From contig JAJDCJ010000008.1 of assembly GCA_029260935.1 (NCBI GenBank), positions 3,905 to 67,904 of the forward strand: 64,000 bases of DNA, read 5' to 3'. How positions within the stretch are numbered: the stretch's first letter is position 1; every line of letters begins with the position of its first letter. Below, in pieces: positions 1-30,729 of this stretch. Source of the DNA: Patescibacteria group bacterium (GTDB lineage Bacteria; Patescibacteriota; Minisyncoccia; Phycocordibacterales; Phycocordibacteraceae). Under the pieces are notes generated by a model. The model was not told the DNA's origin and made no database searches. It worked only from the letters and a program-made list of their open reading frames with translations. Made by a program: the position numbers and the translations under genes.

Positions 1-2
1 CT

Positions 3-3000
3 GGAGGAAACGATTGGGATATTGTTGCGGGATTACCTGGAGCAAATAATACCAACTTCAGCATTTACGATGTTACTGATGCTGCAACTCGTTTGACTAT
101 AGACACTACTGGCAACGTCGGCATTGGCACTACCAGCCCCGGCACGCTCTTTGCCCTTGGCGACACCGGCGCAAACACCATCAACATTTCCCCAACTGCC
201 ACCTCTACGTTCGGAAGCGGTCTCAACATCCGCACTGGCTGTTTTGCGGTAAATGGAACCTGTGTTGGCGGTGGGGGAGGTAGTGGCACCCCAGGGGGCA
301 CAGACGGACAGGTGCAGTACAACAATGGCAGTGCCTTCGGCGGCGCGTCTGCACTTTTCTATGACGACATAAACAATCTCGTTGGCATTGGTACGACGAG
401 TCCTGGATATAAACTTGAAGTGTATGGCACTGGAACCACAGGTGGCATTTTGATTGACGATAGTAGCACCTCGTCTGCCGCTCCACTACTCGAGGTAAAA
501 GGACGACGTTCGGACGCGAATGTTTCGCAATCATTTTCTGCAGGACTGGCACTGGCAGGTTTACGCACTGACGCAACAGTCGGTAGCGCCAAACATCTCG
601 GAACAGTTTATTTCGGCGGTAACCACACCGATGGTGCCGATACAAATCTTCTCTATAGCGCCTCAATTTCCGGTATTTCTGAAGGGACTTTCAGTAACGG
701 AACAACAATGCCAACAGGGCTCGCGTTTTACACTGGCTCAACCGGCACGGCGCTCGGCACCGCAAACCAAACTTTTGGCACAGAACGTCTCCGTATTACT
801 AACGCCGGCAACGTCGGCATCGGGACGACGAGTCCATTGGATACGTTTGATGTTGCAGGAAACATTGGTCTTACCGGTGCGGTAACGCGCCAGATACTAT
901 TGCGTGGTGGAGCAGCGAGTTCTGTGCTTTCTATTGATTTTCCTGAAACGACAGCAACAGAGACAAACCAATTCCGATTGTTTCGTAGCACCACCCAAGC
1001 CGCCGCTTCTGCTCTCCAAATTTACAAAGGTGACAATACCACAAGTGTTCAGACAAACCTCTCTTCATTTGGAAACTCGTACATCAATGCATTAGCAGGC
1101 AACGTCGGCATCGGGACAACAAGTCCGGCAAATAGTTCAAAACTTGGCGTTGAGGGCAGTTTATATTTCACTCAAGGGTTTAAGTACCACGACACAGGAG
1201 TTGTTTCAGCAAGTATCGGCTCTGCGGCTTCAACGGATATCGGGCTTACATTTGACCACCCTACAACTGATTGGAACATTGGTATTGATAACAGTGATAG
1301 TCAGGCATTCAAAATTGCAAATGGTGCCATTGGGGTTGCCGATAAAGTAACTATCACCACCTCCGGCAACGTCGGCATCGGGACAACAAGTCCGTATAAA
1401 AAGCTCTCGGTTGATGGCGATGGAGTGTTTGCGTCTACCGGACCGGTTGAGCTTATACTCCATGCAGATACAGACAATGTTACGGAAACTGACAACCCGC
1501 GCATTATATTCAAACAAGACGGTACGGCTGTTGTTGGTCGGGTCGGGTACAAATCCGGCACAAACTCTTTGGAAATAATAAATGAATTTACTGACAAGCT
1601 TAGTTTAGGAACAAACAATGTCGACCGCCTTACCATAGACTCCGCCGGCAACGTCGGCATCGGTGATACAACTCCTGGAGTTACATTGGATGTAGAAGGA
1701 AATATACGTTCTCAAGGATCACTAGCAGGTCTTATATTCAACGATAGGTCGGCAGGCGCTGCATGGCAGTGGTATGCCTCAGGTGGTACCGCTAGGTTGT
1801 ACAACGGGTCCGATAAGTTTGCTATCGATTCCTCAGGCAACGTCGGGGTCGGCAATACAGCGCCTAATGCTCTTTTGCATATCGGAGCGAATATCAGCAG
1901 TGAGTTAGGTGTATTGGTAGCAAACCAGCAGACAGCACTCGCCACCACGCTCAATGCCAACCAGCCCGTGGCAACATTTTCAGCCGGTAACACCTTGAAT
2001 GATTTCAAAAATACGCTCTATGTTGTTCGGGATACTGCGGCGGGAACAGATTGGACAACGACCAGGTGGCACGATGCAATAAATGTAGACAACTCCTTCC
2101 TTACGCCGAGGACCGACACAAAAGTATGGTGGGAACGCGACCCGAACAACAACATCCAATCATGGGGCAATGCGGCAAGCACCTACCTCACCATCAACGC
2201 AGGCAAAGTCGGGATTGGCACGGTAAGTCCTTCACAAGCACTCATGGTGTCTGGCATCGCATACGCAACTAGTGGGTTTCGCGGTCCGAGTAATGTGACT
2301 GGTGCAACAGTTAGTGATGTCGTCGCATCAGGTTGTGATTTTGAAGGAAGCATGATAACCAGTGGTGGTATTGTTACTACATTCACCTCTGCTTCCAGCT
2401 GTGCAAGCGGGTTTTCAGACGAGCGACTGAAAACAAACATCACGTCGACAGAAGACGGGTACGGCCTTGATGAAATTCTCCAGTTGCAACCGATAACGTA
2501 CAACTGGCTTGGTTCCAGCTTTAGCACAACAACACAGCTCGGGTTTATTGCCCAGGACATTGAGTTAGTGTTCCCTGAACTTATAACGGATTTCGGTACA
2601 ACCACTATTACGCTTCCTGACGGCGCAACCACTACAATTTCACACACGCTCGGGTTGAAGTATGGTGTGTTGACCGTGCCATTAGTGAAAGCAGTACAGG
2701 AACTGTACGCGATGATGGTTGACGTGAAAGAGCAGGTGCTCGCGCTCGTTGACCGCGTTACTGGTGTTGAAAGCAGGGTGGCGAGCTTGGAAGCCGAGAA
2801 CGCACAGCTTACCGCGCGCCTCTCTTTGATCGAATCCGCCCTCGCTTCCGGTACTCTCACTCCAAATATCTTGACGTCCGACGTCAAGATATCGGACGCT
2901 GACACCGAAGCTCCCGTCATTACCATGAACGGCAACAACCCAGCAACCATTGCAGTGGGCGACACCTACGCCGACCTCGGCGCAAGCGTCACCGACAACA

Positions 3001-3401
3001 TTGATCAAAACATCGGCATCCACACCTTTATTAATGACGGGGAAGTGACCACCGTGACGCTCGACACCAGCACCTCTACCACCTACACCATTACCTACCG
3101 CGCCACCGACCAAGCAGGGAACATTGGAGAGGCAACCCGCACCGTGGTTGTTGGTAGAGAAGAAGCACCACTTCCTGAGACAGTCACAGAACCCACCGCA
3201 ACCACGACACCGTCTATCGTAGAGGAAGCGTCAGCACCCACCACACCACCTGTAGTTGTAGAAACGAGTGAAGAAACACCACATGCGTCATCCACACCTG
3301 AGGCACTACCTGCCCCTGTAACTGCCGTTGAAACACCACCTGTTGTAGAGGAAGAGTCAGCACCCACGACACCGCCTTTGGGGGAGGAAGCAGTTAATTA
3401 G
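3..3401 (+). CDS. Giant repeat-containing surface/tail-fibre-like protein, 5'-partial. The reading frame is open from window position 3; the track shows a TTG at 93. It carries about 9 GNVGIGTTSP repeats, then an S74 intramolecular chaperone autoprocessing domain (SDERLKTNI...YNW...GFIAQDIELVFPEL), a coiled coil, an Ig-like (DUF5011-like) module and a Pro/Thr-rich tail.
   Basis: Long ORF with no stop back to the window start in the same frame. Periodic 'xRLTIDxxGNVGIGTTSP' repeats. The motif S-D-E-R-L-K-T-N-I followed by 'LQPITYNW' and 'GFIAQDIELVFPELI' matches the Peptidase_S74/CIMCD consensus from memory. The C-terminal 'APVITMNGNNPATIAVGDTYADLGASVTD' resembles bacterial Ig-like DUF5011. 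Confidence 0.8.
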   Translation, partial: GGNDWDIVAGLPGANNTNFSIYDVTDAATRLTIDTTGNVGIGTTSPGTLFALGDTGANTINISPTATSTFGSGLNIRTGCFAVNGTCVGGGGGSGTPGGTDGQVQYNNGSAFGGASALFYDDINNLVGIGTTSPGYKLEVYGTGTTGGILIDDSSTSSAAPLLEVKGRRSDANVSQSFSAGLALAGLRTDATVGSAKHLGTVYFGGNHTDGADTNLLYSASISGISEGTFSNGTTMPTGLAFYTGSTGTALGTANQTFGTERLRITNAGNVGIGTTSPLDTFDVAGNIGLTGAVTRQILLRGGAASSVLSIDFPETTATETNQFRLFRSTTQAAASALQIYKGDNTTSVQTNLSSFGNSYINALAGNVGIGTTSPANSSKLGVEGSLYFTQGFKYHDTGVVSASIGSAASTDIGLTFDHPTTDWNIGIDNSDSQAFKIANGAIGVADKVTITTSGNVGIGTTSPYKKLSVDGDGVFASTGPVELILHADTDNVTETDNPRIIFKQDGTAVVGRVGYKSGTNSLEIINEFTDKLSLGTNNVDRLTIDSAGNVGIGDTTPGVTLDVEGNIRSQGSLAGLIFNDRSAGAAWQWYASGGTARLYNGSDKFAIDSSGNVGVGNTAPNALLHIGANISSELGVLVANQQTALATTLNANQPVATFSAGNTLNDFKNTLYVVRDTAAGTDWTTTRWHDAINVDNSFLTPRTDTKVWWERDPNNNIQSWGNAASTYLTINAGKVGIGTVSPSQALMVSGIAYATSGFRGPSNVTGATVSDVVASGCDFEGSMITSGGIVTTFTSASSCASGFSDERLKTNITSTEDGYGLDEILQLQPITYNWLGSSFSTTTQLGFIAQDIELVFPELITDFGTTTITLPDGATTTISHTLGLKYGVLTVPLVKAVQELYAMMVDVKEQVLALVDRVTGVESRVASLEAENAQLTARLSLIESALASGTLTPNILTSDVKISDADTEAPVITMNGNNPATIAVGDTYADLGASVTDNIDQNIGIHTFINDGEVTTVTLDTSTSTTYTITYRATDQAGNIGEATRTVVVGREEAPLPETVTEPTATTTPSIVEEASAPTTPPVVVETSEETPHASSTPEALPAPVTAVETPPVVEEESAPTTPPLGEEAVN
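2865..2891. repeat. REP-A palindromic element (atatcttGACGTCCGACGTCaagatat), in-frame inside ORF1 (encodes ...NILTSDVKISD...)
   Basis: Perfect 27-nt palindrome sharing the 13-nt core GACGTC-S-GACGTC with at least 7 other copies in the window. Confidence 0.8.
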
Positions 3402-3821
3402 CATACAGAACCTGCAGAAAAAACACTGAAAGGTATCAACTAAGAAATCCTCAACGAAAAAACTGTGGAAAACAATTGGGTGTTTAATGATCCTTATTCT
3501 ATCCATTGGTAGATTAAAAATAGTTACTAAAAAACATAAAAACCACTTCGTTTGTTTTTTAGTTGCTCTTTTTAAATTATCTCGGCAAGACGAGATATGT
3601 TTATTCTATTAGGTGTGTCGGTAATATTTTTCTAATAAACTACAGCACCAATGTTTTTTACTTCAGGTGGACAGTGTGCTAATTAGCTTACTCCCAGTAG
3701 GTTTTTTTGAAACTATCAGACTACATTAACTGAAATGAAGTGGAAAAAAGGCAGATAAGACTTTTTAAAAAACCACAAACCTCCGACAAACCTAGTTAAA
3801 ATAAGGGTATGTCGGAGGTTT

Positions 3822-6800
3822 ATGGATTATATATCTGAAAAAAATAAAGAACTAAAAAATGAAGGCACCGACGTTCTTGTCTCATCGTCTGACGCTGCAA
3901 AAGTGCTCGGGTGCACACCAGACCATATTGCCAGACTTTGCCGGAAAGGAGAGTTGCGGTGTGTTCGTATTGAAAAACGATGGAAAGTATACAGAGCTTC
4001 CTTAGATCACTACTCATTATTTGCTCAAGAGCGAGCTGAAGAACTCCAAAGAAAACTTTCTGAAGAAAGAAAACAAGAATACCAACAAAAGAATGGACAT
4101 AGAAAACACAGCACATATCGTCCGACATCACCTTCTTTTTCTTCACATCCATACCATACCAACAAAATTTATTTTATTAGTTTATACACAGTGTTTGTTT
4201 TTACAGCGCTTCCTCTTTCTTTGCTCGCCGCGCAAATTTTTAACTATGAAAGAATAAAAGAATTAGTGCAGGGGAACCCTGCACCACTTTTTGAAGAAAT
4301 AAAAACAGTTACTCACTCGGTACAACAAACTATTGCTTCAGCTACTCGCGCACCACTTGGAAGCGGACAGTATGATTCCTCTTCATATGTTGCACTCGCA
4401 CTCCAACCACAAGCACTATTCAGTGCATTCAGTGATTGGTTGTGGGGCGAACCACAACTATATACACCGCCTGCGCTTGGTGTACCGCGCCGGCAAGAAA
4501 CATCAAATAACACTACGACCAGCATTGAAAGAACCCCCACCACCGTCATCCGCAACGTCACCGAACAGGTCACGGTAACTGGTGTCAGCAACGACACACT
4601 CATCACCAGACTGCAGGAACTTGAAAACAAACTTCGCTCTGAGATTCTGGTGTACTCTGCTCGTTCAGACCGCGGGAGCTCTGGAAACTATCGTGCCATT
4701 TCTCTCACCAATGCCATTCATCAGCTCACCAACACCACTATTACAACCCCAACTGTTTCAGGTGGTTCTTTCACTGACGGATCTTTTTCAGGCACATTCA
4801 GCGGACCTATCTCAGGAGGAACAGGAAGCTTCTCAACACTCACTGCATCAGGTGCAACGACACTTGACTCAACCTTGAGCGCCGCAACCACTACCCTTTC
4901 AGGCGCACTCACGGTTTCCGGTACCGCAACATCCTCTATCGCCGGACAGTTAGGACTTTCGTTTGCCCCAACTGAAGCCCACACGTTTGGCGCATGGGCA
5001 ACGGGTGTGGCAAGCAGTAGTGCGGCAAACGCCTCCCTCTACATCAACCCAAGCACCGCCACCGCAGACAGCAACCTCTTCGGTGTGGCAGTGAATGGCG
5101 CAGTCAAGTTTCTTGTTGATGCCGAGGGTGACATATTCGCAAACTCACTTACCGCATCCGGCGGCGTCACTCTCGCAACCACCACGGCTTCCACCTTTAC
5201 CGTGGAAGGCGACACCACTCTTGGCGATGCTGCCACCGACAATCTCACCATCACCGCCCGTCTCATCTCCGACCTCATTCCCAAGACGGCAAATACGTAC
5301 GACCTCGGTACCACCACCCTCGGCTTCCGCAGTGGTTTCTTCAACACCTCGCTTCTCATTGGCAACACCGCAACCACAACCATTCGTGGTGACCAAGCGA
5401 CCTCAACCTTTGCAAGCGGTATTGAAGCATCTAGGCAAATCACCGCGCCATTCTTTCAGGCAACGAGTACCTCCGCCACCTCAACCTTTGCGGGTGATGT
5501 CACCGTCTCTGGAAAAACCACCCTCGGCACTGCCTCCACTACACAAATCAGTGCCACATACGCCTCATCAACAAATGCATTCTTTGGTTCACTCTCGGTT
5601 GGCTCTCTCACCGGATTCCTCAAAGCAACCGCGGGATCAGTCGCCACCTCACTCATTGACCTGACGTCTGACGTCTCTGGTATACTCGGCACCACCTTCG
5701 GCGGCACCGGCTGGGGCACCATCACCGCAAACACACTCCTTGTGGGAAACGGCACTAACAAATTGGCGACCACCACTGCCGGCACCAACGGACAGGTACT
5801 CGCACTCGTTGGGGGCACGCCAAGCTGGGTGGCAACCACCACGTTCTCAAGCGGGCTCACATACACGGGAGGGAATGTGACAGCGGACCTCGGCACCAGC
5901 GTTGACTTAACGAGTGAAGTCACGGGAACACTCCCGGTGAGCAATGGCGGAACGGGGGCGACGACGTTTACCAACAATCGCCTTCTCACAGGTAACAGCA
6001 CCAGCGCACTCGTTGACGAAGCAAACCTCACCTTTGACGGTTCACTTCTTACTGTTACAGGCAACGCATCCACCACCCAACTTGGCTCAACAGGTTCTTC
6101 ATACTTTGCAACGAGCGGCGGCAACGTCGGTATTGGCACCACAACGCCAAATGCAAAATTGGCCATAAATACCGGTGTTTCCGGACAGCTCGTGCTGTGG
6201 AAGGGTTCGGGTGCACAATCCGGTATCGCATCAGGGCAGGTTGGTGGAGCAAATACGCTGGAATTTACTACAGATGACGCCGCCGGTGGTCAGGCAACGA
6301 GGTTATTACTGAGAGGGACCACCGCCGATGCCGATACTGAATTTTATAGAGGGGCACGAGGTGCGGAAATTCTTACTTTGTTTATAGAGGGGTCAAACGG
6401 GAATGTCGGTATTGGCAGTACCACTCCATTTGCAACGCTTGCAGTCAATCCTATTGCCGGCGACACCAACCAGTTTGTGGTGGGGAGTTCAACCGCAACC
6501 AGTTTTATTATTAACAGTGCCGGCAACGTGGGAGTTGGAGTGACAGACCCGGACAAGACACTTGAAGTGTTTGAAACGGTTGCCGATAGTCAGCTGAAAC
6601 TCTCCTACGACGCCACGCGCTACACCACCTTCCAAGTTACTTCCGTGGGCGACCTGGTGATAGACGCGCAGGGAGGCGATGCGTCGCTTTTGGATGAAAA
6701 CCTCTTTGTGTGTGCCGGCGGTTCCTGCCCTGCCGGCACACCAACGGGCACAGGAAACTTTATAGTTGAGCGTGGTATCGGTGTGGCGTCAGCCACACCG

Positions 6801-7157
6801 ATAACCGGTATTTCGGTGGGTGCCGACAGTGCCATTGTAACGACTGAAAAAAATGTTGCCGACGCCGCTCCTATTACCATTGACTGGGACAACGGCAACC
6901 AACAGCTCATCCGCCTTGCGGCAAGCCGCACCGTGAACTTCTCTAACGTTAAAGCGGGGCAGACACTCCGCTTAACGGTGTGCACGACAGCAAGTTCCCG
7001 ATTGGTCACCTGGGGTTCTACTATTCGCTGGTCGGGTGGCACGGCGCCCACGCAAACGGCAACCGCCAACAAGTGCGATGTGTTCTCGTTCCTTGGTACC
7101 CTTGGTCACACGGGAAGTGCAGTGCTAATTTTCGGCGCGTCAACGCTTAATTTTTAG
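3822..7157 (+). CDS. Giant Thr/Ser/Gly-rich surface protein with an N-terminal HTH (excisionase/HTH_17-like) domain and one TM helix, then about 1000 aa of repetitive extracellular sequence including GNVGIGTTTP-type repeats
   Basis: 1111-aa ORF. The N-terminus 'AAKVLGCTPDHIARLCRKGELRCVRIEKRWKVY' is HTH_17-like. A hydrophobic segment 'IYFISLYTVFVFTALPLSLLAAQIF' follows. Low-complexity T/S/G/A repeats and 'SGGNVGIGTTTPNAKLAIN', 'NGNVGIGSTTPFATLAVN' and 'AGNVGVGVTDPDKTLEV' motifs are shared with ORF1. Confidence 0.75.
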   Translation: MDYISEKNKELKNEGTDVLVSSSDAAKVLGCTPDHIARLCRKGELRCVRIEKRWKVYRASLDHYSLFAQERAEELQRKLSEERKQEYQQKNGHRKHSTYRPTSPSFSSHPYHTNKIYFISLYTVFVFTALPLSLLAAQIFNYERIKELVQGNPAPLFEEIKTVTHSVQQTIASATRAPLGSGQYDSSSYVALALQPQALFSAFSDWLWGEPQLYTPPALGVPRRQETSNNTTTSIERTPTTVIRNVTEQVTVTGVSNDTLITRLQELENKLRSEILVYSARSDRGSSGNYRAISLTNAIHQLTNTTITTPTVSGGSFTDGSFSGTFSGPISGGTGSFSTLTASGATTLDSTLSAATTTLSGALTVSGTATSSIAGQLGLSFAPTEAHTFGAWATGVASSSAANASLYINPSTATADSNLFGVAVNGAVKFLVDAEGDIFANSLTASGGVTLATTTASTFTVEGDTTLGDAATDNLTITARLISDLIPKTANTYDLGTTTLGFRSGFFNTSLLIGNTATTTIRGDQATSTFASGIEASRQITAPFFQATSTSATSTFAGDVTVSGKTTLGTASTTQISATYASSTNAFFGSLSVGSLTGFLKATAGSVATSLIDLTSDVSGILGTTFGGTGWGTITANTLLVGNGTNKLATTTAGTNGQVLALVGGTPSWVATTTFSSGLTYTGGNVTADLGTSVDLTSEVTGTLPVSNGGTGATTFTNNRLLTGNSTSALVDEANLTFDGSLLTVTGNASTTQLGSTGSSYFATSGGNVGIGTTTPNAKLAINTGVSGQLVLWKGSGAQSGIASGQVGGANTLEFTTDDAAGGQATRLLLRGTTADADTEFYRGARGAEILTLFIEGSNGNVGIGSTTPFATLAVNPIAGDTNQFVVGSSTATSFIINSAGNVGVGVTDPDKTLEVFETVADSQLKLSYDATRYTTFQVTSVGDLVIDAQGGDASLLDENLFVCAGGSCPAGTPTGTGNFIVERGIGVASATPITGISVGADSAIVTTEKNVADAAPITIDWDNGNQQLIRLAASRTVNFSNVKAGQTLRLTVCTTASSRLVTWGSTIRWSGGTAPTQTATANKCDVFSFLGTLGHTGSAVLIFGASTLNF

Positions 7158-7209
7158 AGTATGGAATATAGAATATGGAGTATGGAAAGGAGTATAGAAA
7201 ATAAAACAT

Positions 7210-7569
7210 ATGTCAGACACCTATAAACACCTCACCGTTTGGAAAGATTCTGTAACTTTCGCAACTGAAATATATTCAGCTACACGGGAATTTCCACAAA
7301 GCGAGCTTTTTGGACTGACCTCGCAACTGCGGCGTGCAGCCGTTTCAGTTGCTGCAAACCTTGCAGAAGGAGCCGGGAGGAATTCCAAGAAGGATTTTGC
7401 ACGTTTTGTAGATATCGCACTCGGTTCGTTAAATGAAGTGGAAACCCTGCTAAAAATTGCAGAAAACATCGGTTACTTGTCGTCCTCGGTCTATAGTGGG
7501 CTTTTTGATTCAACGCAATCAATCGGGAAGGCTCTTGGTGGTCTTCGTAAATATCTTAAGCACACATAA
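7210..7569 (+). CDS. Four-helix-bundle protein of the 23S rRNA intervening-sequence / Avd-like family
   Basis: 119 aa. 'WKDSVTFATEIYSATREFPQSELFGLTSQLRRAAVSVAANLAEG...FVDIALGSLNEVETLL' matches the TIGR02436/PF05635 pattern from memory. Confidence 0.75.
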   Translation: MSDTYKHLTVWKDSVTFATEIYSATREFPQSELFGLTSQLRRAAVSVAANLAEGAGRNSKKDFARFVDIALGSLNEVETLLKIAENIGYLSSSVYSGLFDSTQSIGKALGGLRKYLKHT

Positions 7570-7573
7570 TTTT

Positions 7574-8761
7574 ATGCCTAAACCACATTCCACATTCCAC
7601 ATTCCGTACTCTCTTCTCCTCATACTCTCCATTCCTCTTTTCTTTGTTGGAGCCGAATTCGCGTGGCAGTGGTACCACGCGAATTCGGCGGGGAACGACC
7701 CACTCCTAAAAGAGCGCATGGTGGTTTCCAGTGAAATTATTGGTAGTGAAGTGCGTTATACATATCTGGGGGAGAAACTACCCGAACTCCTTGTTGAAGG
7801 AGAGGTCGTGCGCTTACGCACAGAAACTTCGTTCAGCAGGGAGGTACACCGCACGAAAGAAGAGGTAACGCGCGAACAGGTTTCCTACCCGCGCCAAGCG
7901 TTCGCCCGCGACGTGCTTGGCGCGTGGTATTACGCGGAACACGCCACCACCACGCGCGAAGCATTTTTGAAAAAAAGCGCTTTCAGATACACCACCACTC
8001 TAGCTAAGTCAGTGTTCTTCTCTGTTGCCTATGCAGTAACCGACACCGTTTTTTCGCACGCCGGTGACGGATATATATCCGGCCTCGGCTTACAGTTTGG
8101 CACGGGGCCTATTAAACAGGCGGCGGCGTGGGGTGCAGCGCATAGTGCGACCAGTGGTGTTGTGAAATCCACTGCCACCACCTTATCAGCTCTTTCTCAA
8201 ATTTCCGATGACCTGGACGTCGTTCAGGCAGATATTGACAGGGTATTCGTTCCGTTTAACACCTCAACAATTTCTTCTTCGGCAGTTATTAGCTCAGCGT
8301 CCTTAAACCTCTATGTTGTTTCAAAGAACAATCAAGATAATGATGGCACTGATTTTGTTACCGTTATTCGGACTGACAACGCCGACTACACCACACTCGT
8401 CAGCGCCGACTACAACAATGCGGGGGCCACATCCAACCCTACTGAAGGCGTTGATACCGGGCAGAGGAAAGACATCACTTCTATTACTACGGGTGCGTAC
8501 TTGGTGTTTACACTGAATACAACGGGAATAGGGTGGATTGCCTTAAGTGGGCAGGCAAGCAACTGTTCCACCGCAACCGGCATTAGCTGTTTTGGGGTGC
8601 GTGAAGGACATGATGTGATTAATAGCCAGGTAGTTGAGAATACCACCAGCTCCGTCACCTTCAGTAGTGCGGAAGCAACTGGCACGTCCCAAGATCCGTT
8701 TCTTTCCGTGACCTACACCGTGCCAAACTTATTCGCGCCGTGGATGTTTGAGCCGTTTTAA
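7574..8761 (+). CDS. Hypothetical secreted/membrane-anchored protein. The track ORF starts at 7457; the likely start is the ATG at 7574, after the upstream gene's stop.
   Basis: Long ORF with an N-terminal hydrophobic segment 'YSLLLILSIPLFFVGA'. No recognisable catalytic motifs. Confidence 0.5.
   Translation: MPKPHSTFHIPYSLLLILSIPLFFVGAEFAWQWYHANSAGNDPLLKERMVVSSEIIGSEVRYTYLGEKLPELLVEGEVVRLRTETSFSREVHRTKEEVTREQVSYPRQAFARDVLGAWYYAEHATTTREAFLKKSAFRYTTTLAKSVFFSVAYAVTDTVFSHAGDGYISGLGLQFGTGPIKQAAAWGAAHSATSGVVKSTATTLSALSQISDDLDVVQADIDRVFVPFNTSTISSSAVISSASLNLYVVSKNNQDNDGTDFVTVIRTDNADYTTLVSADYNNAGATSNPTEGVDTGQRKDITSITTGAYLVFTLNTTGIGWIALSGQASNCSTATGISCFGVREGHDVINSQVVENTTSSVTFSSAEATGTSQDPFLSVTYTVPNLFAPWMFEPF
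7652..7689. repeat. Perfect 15-bp inverted repeat (GCCGAATTCGCGTGG / CCACGCGAATTCGGC) with an 8-nt loop, inside the CDS
   Basis: Seen directly in the sequence. In-frame, encoding 'AEFAWQWYHANSA'. Confidence 0.7.
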
Positions 8762-8887
8762 CTCATGAGAGATTATGTACCATTACGTCTACATCTTACA
8801 AAGTTCAAAAGACCACAAGTGGTATACCGGTGCCACTAAATCGCTTCTTATCTCTAACGGGCTGAAGTCTGTATAATCAACATATAT

Positions 8888-10090
8888 ATGCTCAAAAAAT
8901 TCGCCTCATTCTTTCTCTACAACAACCTTGTGCCGATTATCTTCGGGGTTCTCTTTCTTGGCGCAGGCGCAACATTTGCCGCCTCACCCGAAGCGCGCGA
9001 CGTGGTGTTTAGCGCGCAGGCGGTGGTAGCTTCGGTTGATAATGCATACATCATTTCCGCTGACATCGACGCCTATCCGTTTGACATTCAAATTACAGAC
9101 ATTGCCGAAAGTGACACACACTATTTCATCACCTACACACTGGCAACTATTGATCTTGCAGAAGGGGTATGGCGCGACGTAGTAAAGGCGCGCACGCTTG
9201 AAGTTGAAAAAGCGGTGTTGGCGGGGCGCGACTTGGGTGTGTATGCGGCGCGCCAGCTTTCCGAAACAAGAGATGCCGAACATGCGCGCCTCGTAGAAAC
9301 GCAGAAGATAGAAAAGGACCTAGGCAAGCAACAAAAAATAGTGGCAACGGTGTACGGCGGATTGGTAGGGAGGATGCTTGAACCCAGCGAGGAGGTGTTT
9401 ACAGGATACACACCGGTTGTTTCAGAACCAATTCCTACAGGGGTGGTTGCAGGTGATGGTGGGGGGAGTACAGGTGCGGGCACTGCAGTACCCGCACCTG
9501 ACCCGCGCGCCGCGGAAGCGGCGCGCCTTGCCGCGCTTGAAGCACGCATTTCTTCGCTTGAATCCGCCCTCGCTTCCGGCAGCACCTCTGCCACCCCCAC
9601 TGATGGACGTCGGACGTCCATCAGTGGGGGTGGGGACACCGAAGCTCCCGTCATTACCGTGAACGGCAATAACCCAGCGACCATCAATGTGGGCGACACC
9701 TACGCCGACCTCGGCGCAAGCGTCACCGACAACATTGATCAAAACATCGGCATCCACACCTTTGTTGACGGCAACGAAGTAACTACCGTAGCTTTGGATA
9801 CCAGCACCTCAACCACATACACTATTGTATATAAAGCAACTGACACTTCAGGAAATGTGGGAGAGGCAACACGCACCGTCGTTGTGGGAGGAGCTCAACC
9901 AGGAGCGGAACCACCAACCGTGGTACCTGAAACGCCACCGGCTTCACCTACTGCAACTTCAACACCCGCAACCCCTCCTCCTGAACCTGCCGCAACGTCC
10001 ACCCCTCCGACGAGCCCTCTTCCAGCTGTAGAAACAACTCCACCACCACCCGCAACCATAACCGGCACCACCACGCCAGAATCAATCTAA
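8888..10090 (+). CDS. Secreted protein with a signal peptide, a coiled coil, an Ig-like (DUF5011-like) module and a Pro/Thr-rich tail. The C-terminal cassette is near-identical to that of ORF1.
   Basis: 400 aa. N-terminal hydrophobic 'LVPIIFGVLFLGAGATFA'. The segment 'SLESALASG...DTEAPVITVNGNNPATINVGDTYADLGASVTDNIDQNIGIHTF...EATRTVVVG' shares roughly 90% nucleotide identity with 2830-3160. Confidence 0.75.
   Translation: MLKKFASFFLYNNLVPIIFGVLFLGAGATFAASPEARDVVFSAQAVVASVDNAYIISADIDAYPFDIQITDIAESDTHYFITYTLATIDLAEGVWRDVVKARTLEVEKAVLAGRDLGVYAARQLSETRDAEHARLVETQKIEKDLGKQQKIVATVYGGLVGRMLEPSEEVFTGYTPVVSEPIPTGVVAGDGGGSTGAGTAVPAPDPRAAEAARLAALEARISSLESALASGSTSATPTDGRRTSISGGGDTEAPVITVNGNNPATINVGDTYADLGASVTDNIDQNIGIHTFVDGNEVTTVALDTSTSTTYTIVYKATDTSGNVGEATRTVVVGGAQPGAEPPTVVPETPPASPTATSTPATPPPEPAATSTPPTSPLPAVETTPPPPATITGTTTPESI
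9595..9629. repeat. REP-A palindromic element (ccccactgatgGACGTCGGACGTCcatcagtgggg), in-frame inside CDS 8888-10090
   Basis: Perfect 35-nt palindrome. Same core as the other REP-A copies. Confidence 0.8.
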
Positions 10091-10104
10091 CCAAACTCCT
10101 CCCA

Positions 10105-10129
10105 TTTGCGGACGTCGGACGTCCGCAAA
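10105..10129. repeat. REP-A palindromic element (tttgcgGACGTCGGACGTCcgcaaa)
   Basis: Perfect palindrome. Intergenic, 3' of RAYT1. Confidence 0.8.
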
Positions 10130-10159
10130 CCTCGCATTTCCGCCCTTCTTCACCCCTCA

Positions 10160-10204
10160 CACCCAAATAATTATGGACGTCGGACGTCCATAATTATTTG
10201 GGTG
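10160..10204. repeat. REP-A palindromic element with long arms (cacccaaataattatgGACGTCGGACGTCcataattatttgggtg)
   Basis: Perfect 45-nt palindrome immediately 3' of the RAYT1 stop. Confidence 0.8.
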
Positions 10205-10215
10205 TCTGTTGTTAT

Positions 10216-10899
10216 TTATTCTAAAGTAACTCCCGCAACCTCATCAACACTAAACTCTTTTAATGTCTTTGAAACTGATTTTTTATACCCTCCTTCACCA
10301 CCAAAAAACTCAAGAAAAAACTTTCGGTCAGTTACCAACGGAAAGTTTTTCTCTCCTAAATAATCAAGGTGACTGCTCCAGCGATACGTGTTCAGAAAAT
10401 CCAACGCCTTTTTCGGGTGTGCGATGCACTGTTTTCGCCATTCCGGCACTTTTAAATCAAGCGGATTAAAGTGAATGTAGTAGGGGATATAAAGGAAGTG
10501 CGCATCACGCTCAATCAGCACCTTCTTATATTTGCCTTGCCACAATGCCCCACTCCGGTCATATTTCTCATTAAAATACTTTGAGTAGCCCCCATTGAGT
10601 TTTTTCATAAAAAGCGAAATACCATTTTCTACAACCGGCGATAACAGCAGGTGATAGTGGTTCGGCATCAAACAGAAAAAATGCACCTGCACCAACCTCT
10701 CCCGGCTCCTCTCATGATAAGTCTGCGGACGTCGGACGTCCGCAGACGGCTCTGTTGCGCGCCGTAATTGATAATAGGGAAGTACATTGCGGGTATCATT
10801 GAATTCATATATATCGTGAATGAACCGCAAATAATCTCTCTCATCAAGAAAAGTAGTGCGTTTATCAACACCTCTGTTGAGTACATGAAAGAAATCCAT
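10216..10899 (-). CDS. REP-associated tyrosine transposase (RAYT; IS200/IS605 TnpA-like HuH Y1 transposase). The track ORF extends to 10995 by reading through the 5' REP; the likely start is the ATG at 10899.
   Basis: HuH motif 'LMPNHYHLLLSP'. C-terminal Y...Q region 'YSKYFNEKYDRSGALWQGKY'. Length about 228 aa. Flanked by palindromes. Confidence 0.8.
   Translation of the reverse strand: MDFFHVLNRGVDKRTTFLDERDYLRFIHDIYEFNDTRNVLPYYQLRRATEPSADVRRPQTYHERSRERLVQVHFFCLMPNHYHLLLSPVVENGISLFMKKLNGGYSKYFNEKYDRSGALWQGKYKKVLIERDAHFLYIPYYIHFNPLDLKVPEWRKQCIAHPKKALDFLNTYRWSSHLDYLGEKNFPLVTDRKFFLEFFGGEGGYKKSVSKTLKEFSVDEVAGVTLE
10721..10747. repeat. REP-A palindromic element (gtctgcgGACGTCGGACGTCcgcagac) inserted in-frame inside the RAYT1 coding sequence (encodes ..PSADVRRPQT..)
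   Basis: 27-nt perfect palindrome. Its length is a multiple of 3 and the ORF continues through it. Confidence 0.8.
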
Positions 10900-10925
10900 A
10901 CGGCAAGTATATCTCTCTCTTACAG

Positions 10926-10952
10926 ATCTGCGGACGTCGGACGTCCGCAGAT
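10926..10952. repeat. REP-A palindromic element (atctgcgGACGTCGGACGTCcgcagat), 5' of RAYT1
   Basis: Perfect palindrome. Confidence 0.8.
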
Positions 10953-10994
10953 GGGGATAGTAAATAATAAAGGCAGGCAGGAGAGGGAATTTCA

Positions 10995-12047
10995 ATGCGT
11001 TACAATAAAGGTATGAAAAAGATTAACGTTGCCATAAATGGCTTAGGCAGAATTGGGCGTGCGTTTGTGCGCGCCACACAAAAAAGTGACGCGATTAACA
11101 TTGTCGCTATTAATGATTTATCAGACACGGAAAACCTTGCCTACTTACTACGGCGTGACACGGTATATGGCATGGCGCCTTTTGAGGTGTCGCATACAGA
11201 AAACACACTTCTCATTGCGGGAAAAGAAATTCCTGTGTATGCAGAAAAAGATCCAGCTCAATTGCCGTGGAAACAGCATGATGTTGATGTTGTGGTTGAG
11301 GCAACAGGAAAGTTTACAAAATATGCTACCTCAAAAGCGCACCTTACCGCAGGGGCAAAACGAGTGGTTATCACCGCTCCGGTTAAAGACACTCCGGAAG
11401 ACGCCGGCGTCATTGGTGCAACAGTTTTGATGGGTATAAATCACCACGAACTTAAAACGTGTGATATCAGTTCCAACGCTTCGTGCACTACAAACGCAGG
11501 TGGTCCACTCATTGCGGTTTTAGATGAGGGAATTGGTATTGAAAAGGCACTCCTTAATACTATTCATGGATACACGTCGTCGCAGTCACTGGTTGATGGT
11601 CCATCATCGCGAAAAAATGATCCACGCCGTGGACGAGCTGCCGCACAAAACATTGTGCCTTCAACCACGGGCGCGGCGACTGCAACCACGAAAGCTCTCA
11701 CTCAACTTGATGGACTCTTTGATGGCGTTGCCGTCCGTGTACCTGTGCCTGTCGGCTCACTCATTGACATTACATTTGTTGCCAAACGCGAAACGTCGGT
11801 TGAAGAAGTCAACGCCATTCTCACTAAAGCATCAAAAGACAAACGGTGGGAAGGTATCTTTACCGCAACTGACGAGCCATTAGTTTCAAGTGATATCATC
11901 GGAAACATACACGCTTCTATTGCAGACCTCTCCTACACGCGTGTGGTGGGTGGTACCTTAGTAAAAGTGTTTGCGTGGTACGACAACGAAACAGGATACA
12001 CTAATGCACTTCTTAAGCAGGTGATTGAAACAGGGGGGTATGTCTAA
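10995..12047 (+). CDS. gap: Glyceraldehyde-3-phosphate dehydrogenase (an alternative start ATG at 11013 gives MKKINVAINGLGRIGR)
   Basis: 'INGLGRIGR' NAD-binding motif. Active site 'SNASCTTN'. 'WYDNETGY' C-terminal motif. Confidence 0.9.
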   Translation: MRYNKGMKKINVAINGLGRIGRAFVRATQKSDAINIVAINDLSDTENLAYLLRRDTVYGMAPFEVSHTENTLLIAGKEIPVYAEKDPAQLPWKQHDVDVVVEATGKFTKYATSKAHLTAGAKRVVITAPVKDTPEDAGVIGATVLMGINHHELKTCDISSNASCTTNAGGPLIAVLDEGIGIEKALLNTIHGYTSSQSLVDGPSSRKNDPRRGRAAAQNIVPSTTGAATATTKALTQLDGLFDGVAVRVPVPVGSLIDITFVAKRETSVEEVNAILTKASKDKRWEGIFTATDEPLVSSDIIGNIHASIADLSYTRVVGGTLVKVFAWYDNETGYTNALLKQVIETGGYV

Positions 12048-12489
12048 TCGTATATATCTTGCAAGTGATCATGCAGGTTTTGAACTTAAAGAGTTTATAA
12101 AAGCAAAACTCACCGAAGCAGGGTACCAAGTTGAAGACTGTGGCGCCACGACTTTTGAAAAAACAGATGACTATCCCGATTTTATACAGCACGCCGCAAA
12201 AGGAGTGCAGAAAACTGAAAACAGTCGCGCTATTATTTTCGGACACTCAGGTCAGGGAGAGGCACTTTCCGCCAACCGTTTCAAAGGTGTACGCGCTACC
12301 GTCTACTATGGAGGTTCTGATGAAGCCATTACATTATCCCGTGAACATAACGACGCTAACATCCTTTCCCTTGGCGCCCACTTCCTCACACAAGAAGACG
12401 CATGGAGCGCAGTTTCCCTCTGGCTCAACACACCGTTTTCAAAGGATGAACGCCACATACGACGCATACACAAAATAGATGCGCTATAA
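12040..12489 (+). CDS. rpiB: Ribose-5-phosphate isomerase B
   Basis: 'IYLASDHAGFELKEFIKAKL...CG' is RpiB/LacAB family. Overlaps the gap stop by 8 nt. Confidence 0.85.
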   Translation: MSNRIYLASDHAGFELKEFIKAKLTEAGYQVEDCGATTFEKTDDYPDFIQHAAKGVQKTENSRAIIFGHSGQGEALSANRFKGVRATVYYGGSDEAITLSREHNDANILSLGAHFLTQEDAWSAVSLWLNTPFSKDERHIRRIHKIDAL

Positions 12490-12501
12490 AAATGTAAAAA
12501 C

Positions 12502-13170
12502 ATGACTGAAGCAATTCCTGCAATTATTCCCGAGTCACTTGATGACTTACGCGCAAAACTCACCACACTGAAGCCGTTTGCCTCGTCAGTGCAAATTGAT
12601 ATCACCGACGGTTTGTTTGTGCTCTCACAATCATGGCCAATGCGCACCACTGATAAAAAACCATTTGAAACTTTTGTGCGCGGAAAGGGCCCACTTCCTT
12701 TCTCTGAGGACTTTTCTTTTGAAGCTGATCTGATGGTTCACGCTCCTGAAACTGTTCTCAAAGACTGGGTAAGACTTGGCATCACTCGCGCAGTTTTTCA
12801 TCTGAGGAGCAAACACAATTTTTCTGAAGTTCAAAGTGCAGTGGGGGATACAGTAGAGTTGGGTGTTGCCATTGACCTCAGCGCTCCGTATGAGCGCCTT
12901 GCTTCGTATATTCCCGACATTGATTACGTACAAGTAATGGGAATTAAAACATTGGGCAGACAAGGGGAGCCGTTTGATCCGCGTGCAATTGATTTGGTTA
13001 AAAAAGTACGGCACGATTTTCCTGATGTTATAATTCAAATAGACGGCGGAGTACATATTCACTCCGCCCAGGTCCTCGTTGAATCTGGAGCGAATCGTTT
13101 GGTTGCCGGTTCGTTTATTTTGAAGGCAGAGAAACCACAGGAAGCATTTACATTTTTAGAGGAACTCTAA
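12502..13170 (+). CDS. rpe: Ribulose-phosphate 3-epimerase family protein
   Basis: 'DITDGLFV', 'DLMVHAPE' and 'VMGIKTLGRQGEPFDPRAIDLVKKVR...IQIDGGV' follow the Rpe pattern. Confidence 0.7.
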   Translation: MTEAIPAIIPESLDDLRAKLTTLKPFASSVQIDITDGLFVLSQSWPMRTTDKKPFETFVRGKGPLPFSEDFSFEADLMVHAPETVLKDWVRLGITRAVFHLRSKHNFSEVQSAVGDTVELGVAIDLSAPYERLASYIPDIDYVQVMGIKTLGRQGEPFDPRAIDLVKKVRHDFPDVIIQIDGGVHIHSAQVLVESGANRLVAGSFILKAEKPQEAFTFLEEL

Positions 13171-13173
13171 TAT

Positions 13174-14040
13174 ATGCACACAAGTCTAACCGAAGACACA
13201 CTTACTCTTCTTGAAAAAAAAGCGCGCGACGTGCGCGAGACCCTTATTCGTATGCTGACTGAAGCGGGTAGTGGACACACAGCGGGTTCTTTGGGAATGG
13301 CAGATATTTTTGTGGCGTTGTATTTTCATGTACTTAACCATAATCCGCAAGACCCAGAATGGGAAGACAGGGACCGTTTAGTGCTTTCAAATGGTCATAT
13401 TGTGCCGGTTAGATACGCCACCATGGCGCACGCGGGGTATTTCCCTGTTGAAGAAACAATGACGCTAAGAAAACTTGGCTCACGCCTGCAAGGACACCCT
13501 GAACGCACCAAACTGCCCGGACTTGAAACAACGTCAGGCCCTCTCGGCACAGGTCTTTCACAGGCCTCCGGTATGGCGCTTGCCGCTAAAATGGATAAAA
13601 AGAAGTACCGCGTGTACTGCGCCATGAGTGATGGCGAACACCAGGCAGGTAATGTATGGGAGGCGGCCATGTTTGCAGGCGCCAACAAACTCGGCAACTT
13701 AGTAGGTATTATTGACCGTAACAATATCCAAATTAACGGTATGACCGAAGAGGTGATGCCACTTGAACCACTGCAAGAAAAATACAAATCATTTGGTTGG
13801 CACGTGCTTGAAGTGGATGGCCATAATATAGAAGACATTGTGGACGCCTACGACAAAGCGCGTGCCATTTATGAAAAACCAACACTCATAGTTGCTCACA
13901 CTATTCCCGGAAAAGGCATCCCCGATATTGAGTTTGACTATACCTGGCACGGCAAGTCGCCAACCACAGAGGAGGCAAAGAAGTTTATTGAAGAAGTACG
14001 CAGTATGTGCGGAAAAGTAACCTGTGGCGATAAAGACTAG
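13174..14040 (+). CDS. tkt: Transketolase, N-terminal (TPP-binding) subunit
   Basis: 'GSGHTAGSLGMADIFVALYF', 'GPLGTGLSQASGMALA' and 'SDGEHQAGNVWEA' motifs. Confidence 0.9.
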   Translation: MHTSLTEDTLTLLEKKARDVRETLIRMLTEAGSGHTAGSLGMADIFVALYFHVLNHNPQDPEWEDRDRLVLSNGHIVPVRYATMAHAGYFPVEETMTLRKLGSRLQGHPERTKLPGLETTSGPLGTGLSQASGMALAAKMDKKKYRVYCAMSDGEHQAGNVWEAAMFAGANKLGNLVGIIDRNNIQINGMTEEVMPLEPLQEKYKSFGWHVLEVDGHNIEDIVDAYDKARAIYEKPTLIVAHTIPGKGIPDIEFDYTWHGKSPTTEEAKKFIEEVRSMCGKVTCGDKD

Positions 14041-14045
14041 GAAAT

Positions 14046-15035
14046 ATGTTAAACAAAAACATAAAACTAAATACAAAAATTTTTGATACAGACGTGGAGC
14101 GTGCACCAACACGTGACGGGTTTGGTAATGGTGCAATTGAAGCAGGAGAAAAAGATACCAATGTTGTGGTGCTGTGTGCCGACCTTGCCGACTCAACGCG
14201 CGCGCAGTGGTTTCGGGACAAGTTTCCCGACCGCTACATTGAACTTGGTGTTGCCGAACAAAATATGGCGGCGGTTGCTTCCGGCATGGCTTCAGTTGGG
14301 AAAATCCCTTTCATCACATCCTACGCGGCATTTAACCCAGGGCGCAACTATGAGCAAATTAGAACCACCGTTGCCCTCAATGAAATGCCGGTGAAAGTCT
14401 GTGGAATGCATGCGGGAGTGTCTGTGGGTCCTGACGGCGCGACACATCAAATGTTAGAGGACATTGGCCTCATGCGTATGTTACCGAACATGACTGTGGT
14501 ATATCCGGCTGACGCCGAAGAGGCGCGCAAGGCAACGTATGATTCGGCCTTTAACAAAAAACCAACGTACCTACGGTTTGCTCGAGAAAAAACTCCACTT
14601 ATGACAACGAAAGACACACCATTTACCATAGGAAAGGCATACACCATGTGGGAAGGAAAGGACCCGGAGGTCACAATTATCGGCGTGGGCCCACTACTTC
14701 ACGAGGCGCTAAAAGCAGCGGTCGCTCTTGAAAAAGAAGGTATTGCAGTGAGTGTTATAAACAGTCACACCATTAAACCGCTTGATGAGGAAACTATTTT
14801 GAATGCCATAAAAAAATCGGGTGCCGTGGTGACCGTTGAGGAACACCAAAAAGCAGGTGGTTTTGGGAGCGCGGTTGCTGAACTTCTCTCTCAAAATTAC
14901 CCAGTGCCACAAGAATATATTGCAGTTGACGACCGGTTTGGACAGTCAGGAACACCGAGCGAATTAATTGCCCATTATAAACTTGATGCCACAGCAATTA
15001 TTGACGCGGTAAAAAAAGTAAAAAAAAGAAAATAG
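14046..15035 (+). CDS. tkt: Transketolase, C-terminal (pyrimidine-binding) subunit
   Basis: 'LGVAEQNMAAVASGMA' and 'GPDGATHQMLEDIGLMRMLPNMTVVYPAD'. Confidence 0.9.
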   Translation: MLNKNIKLNTKIFDTDVERAPTRDGFGNGAIEAGEKDTNVVVLCADLADSTRAQWFRDKFPDRYIELGVAEQNMAAVASGMASVGKIPFITSYAAFNPGRNYEQIRTTVALNEMPVKVCGMHAGVSVGPDGATHQMLEDIGLMRMLPNMTVVYPADAEEARKATYDSAFNKKPTYLRFAREKTPLMTTKDTPFTIGKAYTMWEGKDPEVTIIGVGPLLHEALKAAVALEKEGIAVSVINSHTIKPLDEETILNAIKKSGAVVTVEEHQKAGGFGSAVAELLSQNYPVPQEYIAVDDRFGQSGTPSELIAHYKLDATAIIDAVKKVKKRK

Positions 15036-15132
15036 AAAGAGTAATGAACTGTATGACACCAACAGTCTTAACAAACACCATAAAAAATGAAGCAGTTTTG
15101 TTAACTAAAAAAATCTATATTAAAAATTAATC

Positions 15133-30620: not shown

Positions 30621-30729
30621 ATTTTTACAGTTTAAGGAAAAACCCCCAGAAACACAAGGTGTTCTCCAATCCACCCACCCAACAATACTATCCAACCTAT
30701 CCACTTATGATCATAGTCAGTGGGAGGGA

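Follow-up and report, generated by a model that had tools for sequence, protein, structure and literature searches.

An internal S74 chaperone domain with an Ig-like extension in a fibre protein family of the candidate phyla radiation

We analysed a 64,000-nucleotide (nt) stretch of DNA from a Patescibacteria group bacterium (contig JAJDCJ010000008.1; hereafter the window), which begins inside a gene for a long fibre protein (3-3401, + strand) carrying a phage-type S74 domain. The protein consists of a tail-fibre-like modular shaft, the S74 domain, an Ig-like PF16403 domain and a Ser/Thr/Pro-type tail, in that order. An initial annotation of the same DNA had described this arrangement for a single gene; sequence comparisons indicate that the S74-Ig-tail layout is standard for a large, unannotated family of the candidate phyla radiation (CPR), mainly Paceibacteria. 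The overall picture that we consider probable is a chromosomal, non-phage giant surface fibre of a CPR bacterium (Adlerbacteria-like, within Paceibacteria) that would be cleaved at its S74 domain.

The S74 domain and the segment behind it

The reading frame of the fibre gene is open from nt 3 up to the left edge of the window, so the protein is truncated at its N-terminus and exceeds 1132 amino acids (aa; more than 1132 codons, with the stop codon at 3399-3401). Residues are numbered here from the TTG at nt 93 (open reading frame (ORF) 93-3401, 1102 aa). Residues 775-918 (nt 2415-2846, + strand, 144 aa) are a bona fide S74 intramolecular-chaperone and auto-processing domain with a Ser775-Lys780 dyad, as seen by Pfam, AlphaFold2, Foldseek and profile comparison. 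PF13884 (Peptidase_S74) matches aa 775-831 over model positions 1-57 of 58 (E 2.2e-14, 53.9 bits, gathering cut-off 22), and this Pfam-covered core corresponds to nt 2415-2585. Translation of 2400-2441 gives CASGF followed by SDERLKTNI, confirming the start of the latter at nt 2415 that had been read from the sequence. S775 (nt 2415-2417) and K780 (nt 2430-2432) stand in an S-D-x-x-x-K motif (S775-D-E-R-L-K780), which makes F774-S775 the putative scissile bond.

An AlphaFold2 monomer model of aa 735-1026, built on an alignment of 48 relatives, has a mean predicted local distance difference test score (pLDDT) of 84.5, with 85-95 in the S74 core and the 62-residue helix behind it. Foldseek against the PDB placed MyRF's ICA (intramolecular chaperone auto-processing) domain at the top (7dc3; E 3e-6, TM-score 0.65-0.69 on the target, root-mean-square deviation 2.5 Å over 117 columns) and also returned the endosialidase (endoNF) intramolecular chaperone 3gw6; in the viral structure library BFVD the match was confined to the S74 part of the model. 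A single-sequence phmmer search of the PDB missed the S74 relatives, and a profile of 22 S74-domain sequences (alignment A4) recovered them, finding the phage chaperones 6f45, 8jov, 8hqz (T5 pb1) and 3gud as well as MyRF 7dc3. These profile-to-structure and fold matches, together with the Pfam score, bear out both the S74 identity proposed in the initial annotation and the chaperone fold it expected of a structure prediction. The profile aligns SDxRxK to MyRF positions 587 and 592 (A587 in 7dc3, an S587A variant, and K592). In MyRF, S587 and K592 form an indispensable Ser-Lys dyad, equivalent to endoNF S911 and K916, and cleavage is abolished by S587A and by K592A (PMC8326128). Both dyad residues are invariant in A4 and in an alignment of S74-Ig proteins (A1).

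The chaperone ends in a helix of 62 residues (aa 857-918, nt 2661-2846); in relatives this helix builds a trimeric coiled coil. It had been counted as one of several extra modules, together about 250 aa, and Pfam adds a sub-threshold coiled-coil-type match between PF13884 and PF16403. In A4 the terminal coiled-coil helix of canonical bacterial and phage S74 proteins aligns with VESRVASLEAENAQLTARLSLIESALASG of the fibre protein, and on the 6f45, 8jov and 8hqz chains the profile match stops 2-3 residues short of the chain end. Because canonical S74 proteins end in the same helix, the coiled coil belongs to the chaperone as its usual terminus, and the true extension is therefore 184 aa (linker, Ig domain and tail). 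A chaperone of 144 aa falls in the known range, the T5 pb1 chaperone having 133 residues (PMC4690869). In all, 328 aa run from S775 to the end of the protein; the internal position of the domain thus holds, as does the estimate of a fragment of about 330 aa if the chain is cut before S775.

The extension begins with a 24-aa linker (2847-2918, + strand; SGTLTPNILTSDVKISDADTEA...), around which pLDDT falls to about 53 (model residues 190-200). An Ig-like beta-sandwich follows (2919-3152, + strand, aa 943-1020), matching PF16403 (Bact_surface_Ig-like, formerly DUF5011) with E 1.5e-12 and 47.8 bits against a cut-off of 27. It is modelled with pLDDT 88-97 (aa 942-1020), and its Foldseek matches are bacterial Ig-like domains (Big_3 2kpn, SraP, SlpX). 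The last 82 aa (3153-3398, + strand) form a tail rich in P, T, E and A (P16, T15, E16, A10, V10) with the motifs TATTTP, ASAPTTPP (twice) and HASSTP and an internal 45-nt repeat (3207-3251 and 3333-3377); it holds neither a hydrophobic segment nor an LPXTG motif. The DUF5011-type module and Pro/Thr-rich tail of the initial annotation are thus both present.

Ser/Thr/Pro tails with a recurrent motif are found in the window at 3153-3398 and 9887-10087 and in the family proteins P0003-P0090. The motif [ADT][AST][ST]TP occurs 50 times across 71 family tails, compared to 7.9 +/- 2.6 times in shuffles, and C-termini of the form ...ATSTSQ, ...ATSTTP or ...TSTPQT are frequent among family members. The motif may be a sequon for O-glycosylation, or it may act in sorting or processing.

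Upstream of the chaperone, the shaft (110-2238, + strand; direct-repeat family D1/D3) comprises seven to eight modules, each starting with (T/I)xxxGNVGIGTTSPxxxL, with motif starts at nt 110, 806, 1097, 1364, 1646, 1835 and 2201. The pattern VG[IV]G...P...[LFVI] matches seven times in the fibre protein and three times in a second fibre gene at 3822-7157. The motifs had been described as beta-helix-like repeats, but at a spacing of 63-232 aa they mark modules of about 90 aa and not beta-helix turns. PHROG tail-fibre families match the protein (phrog_9942, E 9e-46; phrog_18345, 1980 and 5481), and none of the four locus proteins received an informative name from NCBIfam. The visible 1132 residues hold no hydrophobic segment, so the protein has no C-terminal membrane anchor.

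A lineage-biased family layout

To place the internal S74 domain among its relatives, we used a hidden Markov model (HMM) built from the family and determined, in the loci fetched, how far the stop codon lies from the catalytic Ser. Viral contigs from IMG/VR gave a median of 100 aa (5-95% range 87-124; n=98 S74 domains, one outlier), and GTDB members of Bacteroidota, Bdellovibrionota, Proteobacteria and other groups about 100-170 aa. In 15 of the 20 complete CPR cases the distance was 200-547 aa, and in the window protein it is 328 aa. The internal position is real and lineage-biased. None of the best 80 IMG/VR matches continued from S74 into an Ig domain. Among the best 80 GTDB loci, the ones that did were from Adlerbacteria (L001, L003, L006, L008) and Giovannonibacteria (L002), along with two metagenome-assembled genomes (MAGs) under the labels Alphaproteobacteria (L004) and Tepidisphaeraceae (L007) with CPR-like sequences.

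A homology search returned at least 25 proteins with both PF13884 and PF16403, assigned, where names were given, to Kaiserbacteria, Paceibacterota, Parcubacteria and Patescibacteria; the 20 of them placed in A1 all have S74 ahead of the Ig domain. At E <= 1e-30, an exhaustive profile search of 1.84 billion cluster representatives then yielded 9,484 proteins. In most of the best 150 a single match begins at S74 and crosses the Ig domain to the C-terminus, the proteins being 350-7,700 aa long, and 138 of 147 sequences from these best 150 of 9,484 contain the S74 domain, with a median Ser-to-end distance of 272 aa (5-95% range 241-417). At least 137 clusters with less than 50% mutual identity carry 222-580 aa behind the catalytic Ser. 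The same domain order in at least 137 independent clusters rules out an assembly or fusion artefact.

The dyad is almost universal in this family: across 138 clusters with less than 50% mutual identity, the catalytic Ser is kept in 145 and the Lys in 144 of 146 S74 domains. Folding does not need it, as MyRF S587A still folds and was crystallised (PMC8326128), and its retention therefore argues that proteolysis was kept along with the internal position of the domain. Cleavage is thus probably retained in the extended family.

Members differ in what lies between and behind these domains. Most S74-Ig proteins carry a segment between chaperone and Ig domain (A1 columns ~700-830; P0003, P0008, P0012 and others) that reads NLIAWLGNAxNGIxDLFA ... 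ELCVGxTCVTxxQ and contains two near-invariant cysteines; this segment is absent from the window protein and from the Giovannonibacteria homologue, where the coiled coil leads directly to the Ig domain. Some members have an alternative post-S74 module with the motif GITIYDxxTGxPYC. In several CPR and Saccharibacteria fibres (L046, L013, L059, L067 and protein P0062) a beta-sandwich stands behind S74 (...TVTILAGNTVAQV...DVSFDYFLVQ), which in L046 gives a weak, sub-threshold match to H-type lectin (18.8 bits, cut-off 24) and in L067 is followed by two Ig domains, for a total of 547 aa behind the Ser. A Bacteroidota S74 protein from a Saprospiraceae MAG (L076:3265-4692) has 211 aa behind the Ser, the last ~80 of which resemble a type IX secretion system (T9SS) C-terminal sorting domain and would be another lineage-specific module behind S74.

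The window holds a second carrier of the Ig module, a 400-aa paralogous protein encoded at 8888-10090 (+ strand) with an N-terminal transmembrane helix, a beta-meander plus helix domain, a coiled coil, an Ig domain and a P/T tail. The two proteins are 73% identical over 114 aa. The initial annotation had described a whole shared cassette, and the comparison supports this for the Ig domain (2901-3159 vs 9635-9893, 82% nt identity over 259 nt; paralogue Ig domain at nt 9653-9886) and for the 15 codons at the end of the coiled coil, which terminate in LESALASG (2807-2851 vs 9535-9579, 80%), but not for the tails. These are only ~50% identical at the nt level and have composition and short motifs in common rather than alignable sequence. 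In a codon comparison of the Ig core, 72 of 84 aa are identical (86%), with a synonymous divergence (dS) of 0.55, a nonsynonymous divergence (dN) of 0.12 and a dN/dS of 0.22. These values indicate that the two copies are old and that both are kept by selection, the Ig domain being under purifying selection.

Alignment A5 puts the paralogue in a separate conserved CPR family, whose members run from a transmembrane helix through the beta-meander plus helix domain, a variable linker and a short helix to the Ig domain and tail. The beta-meander plus helix domain has no match in Pfam or the PDB, and an AlphaFold2 model of the paralogue found PDB matches for the Ig domain only. Because the Ig-tail unit also ends these unrelated exported CPR proteins, we regard it as a generic C-terminal module, which in the fibre family has come to stand behind the chaperone.

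Chromosomal setting and membrane heads

Genes downstream of the fibre gene are, in order, the second fibre gene, an Avd- and 23S rRNA-intervening-sequence-like four-helix-bundle gene, two genes for transmembrane proteins, an IS200/Y1-transposase-like gene on the other strand, and housekeeping genes. The latter fill ~60 kb and include gap (GAPDH), rpe, a split tkt, L25, a release factor, PheRS, gyrB, dnaE, SMC and rpoB; PHROGs identified no phage structural families in the genes neighbouring the fibre. A comparable order is found in the Adlerbacteria locus L006, with obg, gatB, a small helix-turn-helix (HTH)-transmembrane gene, a 1784-aa HTH-transmembrane-fibre-S74-Ig gene, a Y1-like gene on the other strand, GAPDH and transketolase. 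Between window positions 1-16000 and L006 positions 1-15000, a range whose obg-gatB side lies outside the window, GAPDH is 61% and the Y1 gene 37% identical, and the fibres are alike only over S74-Ig (31%) and at short motifs of the shaft. The locus is a conserved slot in the chromosome, occupied by a surface protein that evolves fast. The initial annotation's proposal of a domesticated, non-phage context is consistent with the housekeeping genes downstream and with the Adlerbacteria fibre gene in the same slot. Neither of the two outcomes named as refuting the initial annotation was seen: the PF13884 match is significant and, as far as the window shows, the fibre gene is not part of an intact prophage structural module.

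The N-terminus that the window cuts off can be compared with those of complete relatives. Several begin with a signal peptide or signal anchor (L002, L037, L077, L022, L059), among them L002, a complete 788-aa Giovannonibacteria homologue with a classical signal peptide that adjoins dnaK and dnaJ, and some signal-peptide relatives continue with a P/S-rich region. Others start with an HTH_17-like domain followed by one transmembrane helix (L006, L019, L020). With a custom HMM of this HTH-transmembrane head we found it in further genes of L003, L006 and L023 among the fetched sequences, and at the extreme N-terminus of 13 long cluster representatives (1,600-7,200 aa). A homologue search with the head returned nothing; long fibres are probably out of its reach, since the homology search that gave the S74-Ig proteins listed none above 643 aa. 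Given these heads, the topology is likely one with the N-terminus at the membrane and the C-terminus distal, as in phage and Bdellovibrio fibres.

Giant fibres with an HTH_17/excisionase-like domain and a transmembrane helix are encoded at L006:5453-10807, L019:364-8148, L020:5888-10756 and, in the window itself, by the second fibre gene (3822-7157, + strand). The latter has an HTH_17 head at aa 20-64 (Pfam 32.8 bits, above cut-off), a transmembrane helix at about aa 116-142, a GNVGIGTTTP shaft and a ~200-aa tip of no known type, and it has no S74 domain. For such proteins a cytoplasmic HTH tethered to an extracellular fibre is predicted from sequence.

Other features of the window stand apart from the fibre. 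The four-helix-bundle gene (7210-7569, + strand), located between surface-protein genes, matches the 23S rRNA-intervening sequence protein family PF05635 (E 6.5e-37) and resembles bAvd. A diversity-generating retroelement, suggested by this Avd-like gene, was rejected, with no template/variable-type repeat in 1-10200 and no reverse transcriptase among the scanned window ORFs. Next to it, 7574-8761 (+ strand) encodes a 395-aa membrane-anchored protein with a weak, sub-threshold DNRLRE-domain match (22.4 bits, cut-off 34); since the TTG-started ORF (7457-8761) overlaps the preceding gene, translation more likely begins at the ATG at 7574. With its conserved position, the Y1 gene resembles a domesticated (RAYT-like) gene more than it does an active insertion sequence element. 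Transketolase is split into adjacent genes (13174-15035, + strand), one for the N-terminal thiamine pyrophosphate-binding part and one for the Pyr and C-terminal parts. The gyrB gene (30888-34298, + strand) contains an intein (PF14890) at aa 478-902, between the GyrB and Toprim domains. A 405-aa protein (29484-30704, - strand) fuses a PheRS alpha-type core to a C-terminal FDX-ACB domain, which we take to be the layout of monomeric mitochondrial-type PheRS.

Proposed mechanism, alternatives and relation to known systems

In the picture that we favour, the missing N-terminus would export the fibre and hold it in the membrane, as the heads of full-length relatives suggest. The S74 domain and its coiled coil would set three chains in register and nucleate folding of the trimeric shaft, by analogy to phage fibres, to MyRF and to the mosaic adhesive trimer (MAT) fibres of Bdellovibrio bacteriovorus, and after trimerisation S775 and K780 would cut the F774-S775 bond. 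This would leave a membrane-anchored mature fibre with a newly exposed distal tip and a separate 328-aa fragment, trimeric via its helix, which would contain the chaperone, the coiled coil, three Ig domains and three tails. The extension would then be a surface module of a generic CPR type that travels on the pro-piece and acts at the pre-cleavage or cap stage (possibly in display, solubility, or contact with the envelope or a ligand), not as a permanent tip; this is the weakest step of the scheme.

Several observations weigh against this scheme. The modules found behind S74 in the family, Ig-like domains and the weakly lectin-like sandwich of L046, are of the kind used as permanent binding tips, and both these modules and the purifying selection on the Ig domain fit a retained tip no less well than a discarded pro-piece. 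A released phage chaperone has no known later role, which leaves a conserved cargo on one unexplained. The 40 residues before S775 have pLDDT 44-54 in the monomer model, so that the junction of shaft and chaperone is unmodelled, and anchoring is deduced from relatives, since the protein's own N-terminus lies outside the window. Taken together, conservation of the dyad favours real cleavage, and selection on the Ig domain with the adhesin-like modules favours a lasting function of the extension.

A lasting function could mean that S74 acts as a trimerisation and folding nucleus only and stays in the chain, or stays bound after cleavage, with the Ig domains and tails as a permanent ligand-binding tip on a coiled-coil stalk. 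Post-S74 modules typical of adhesins (Ig-like domains, and the H-lectin-like sandwich at 18.8 bits, below cut-off) speak for such a tip, as do the dN/dS of 0.22, the paralogue, which likewise presents its Ig domain behind a coiled coil ending in LESALASG, and the Bdellovibrio NS74 fibres, which end in beta-sandwich tips (PMC10769870). Chaperoning, however, needs no dyad (MyRF S587A folds; PMC8326128), yet Ser and Lys are kept in ~99% of 146 domains, and the wild-type motif cleaves in all S74 proteins tested so far (PMC10769870, PMC8326128, PMC4690869); we therefore hold a permanent tip to be rather unlikely. If instead the shed C-terminal fragment were the main product, a secreted trimeric Ig-bearing factor for which the fibre is an export and assembly scaffold, the conserved Ig domain, the conserved dyad and trimerisation through the 62-residue helix would all find a place. 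A shaft that reaches 7,700 aa in relatives would be a costly scaffold for a 328-aa product, though, and the Ig-tail cassette also occurs on small membrane-anchored proteins that need no cleavage, which makes this proposal improbable.

The fibre could also belong to an integrated or degraded CPR prophage. PHROG tail-fibre families match it, S74 is best known from phages, and as much as 17.7 kb of the 81,729-bp source contig precedes the window, outside the analysis. Against a prophage, the 60 kb downstream contain no phage structural or packaging gene, obg-gatB lies directly upstream of the L006 fibre gene and the L002 homologue adjoins dnaK/dnaJ, S74 and Ig are joined in none of the best 80 IMG/VR matches, and the relatives carry transmembrane heads or signal peptides that virion proteins would not need. 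We consider a prophage origin extremely improbable. A more elaborate scheme, which we regard as a long shot, would combine an HTH_17 head inside the cell, a single transmembrane helix and the fibre into a two-part contact device. The extracellular S74 domain would trimerise and break, shedding or uncapping the Ig or lectin module, and this would be coupled to the oligomeric state of the HTH; such a device would be a topologically inverted bacterial counterpart of MyRF with which episymbiotic CPR sense or grip their hosts.

How CPR bacteria recognise and hold their hosts is largely unknown, and the literature found concerns type IV pili of Saccharibacteria. The family described here joins a phage-derived self-processing domain to generic surface modules and, in full-length members, to an HTH head predicted to be cytoplasmic. 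If S74 cleaves, each gene would give two extracellular products, and the conserved cargo on a 'disposable' chaperone would need explaining. The family definition can be used to annotate thousands of 'hypothetical' CPR proteins. Full-text literature searches returned no paper on S74 domains in CPR/Patescibacteria or on the S74-Ig architecture. Cell-encoded S74 adhesin fibres are already known from Bdellovibrio (PMC10769870); the S74-Ig layout is of interest mainly at the level of the family and will not surprise specialists who know the MAT and MyRF work.

The closest known relatives are the Bdellovibrio MAT fibres as a system and MyRF in logic. The MAT superfamily comprises 21 chromosomal trimeric fibre adhesins, 13 of which end in S74 with SDxxxK and eight in other tips, and Bd3182 self-cleaves at S782 of this motif (PMC10769870). 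Like the S74 subgroup of MAT, the window protein is a cell-encoded, non-phage, long tail-fibre-like surface protein with S74 and SDxxxK; both systems have several fibre genes with different ends, the window pairing one S74-type with one non-S74 fibre, and both belong to producers that live by contact with other cells. They differ in that MAT S74 members terminate in S74, whereas the window protein adds 184 aa of Ig domain and tail. A MAT N-terminus has a signal peptide and then a conserved ~130-aa beta-rich domain, in contrast to the HTH_17-like domain plus transmembrane helix, or plain signal peptide, of CPR relatives. The MAT capping-loop motif V-G-G/N-pi-x-x-P-x-x-x-L has no exact match here, and a one-residue-longer form, VG[IV]GxxxPxxx[LFVI], occurs seven times. 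The MAT host is diderm; here the envelope is monoderm-like, as in CPR.

Phage chaperones (K1F endosialidase 3gw6, T5 pb1 8hqz/4uw8, GA-1 neck appendage 3gud, phage LTF 6f45) are homologous, with the same motif and core-plus-helix layout, but they end virion proteins, whereas the window S74 is internal to a non-virion protein. The Ig domain is a clear member of the PF16403/DUF5011 surface Ig domains, with a Big_3/SraP/SlpX-type fold, and differs by its place behind an auto-processing domain. MyRF (7dc3) is the best structural match, with an internal ICA domain, the same Ser-Lys dyad and a trimerising C-terminal coiled coil. In MyRF a transmembrane helix lies behind the ICA domain, and a DNA-binding trimer of the N-terminal part is set free by cleavage on the cytoplasmic side; the window protein has no transmembrane helix behind S74, and its S74 domain is predicted to be extracellular, followed by an Ig domain and a low-complexity tail. 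The internal ICA domain of MyRF splits that protein into two lasting, functional parts (PMC3742443, PMC8326128), and if S74 cleaves in the CPR fibres, they would join MyRF as a second natural case of an internal S74 domain that yields two persisting parts.

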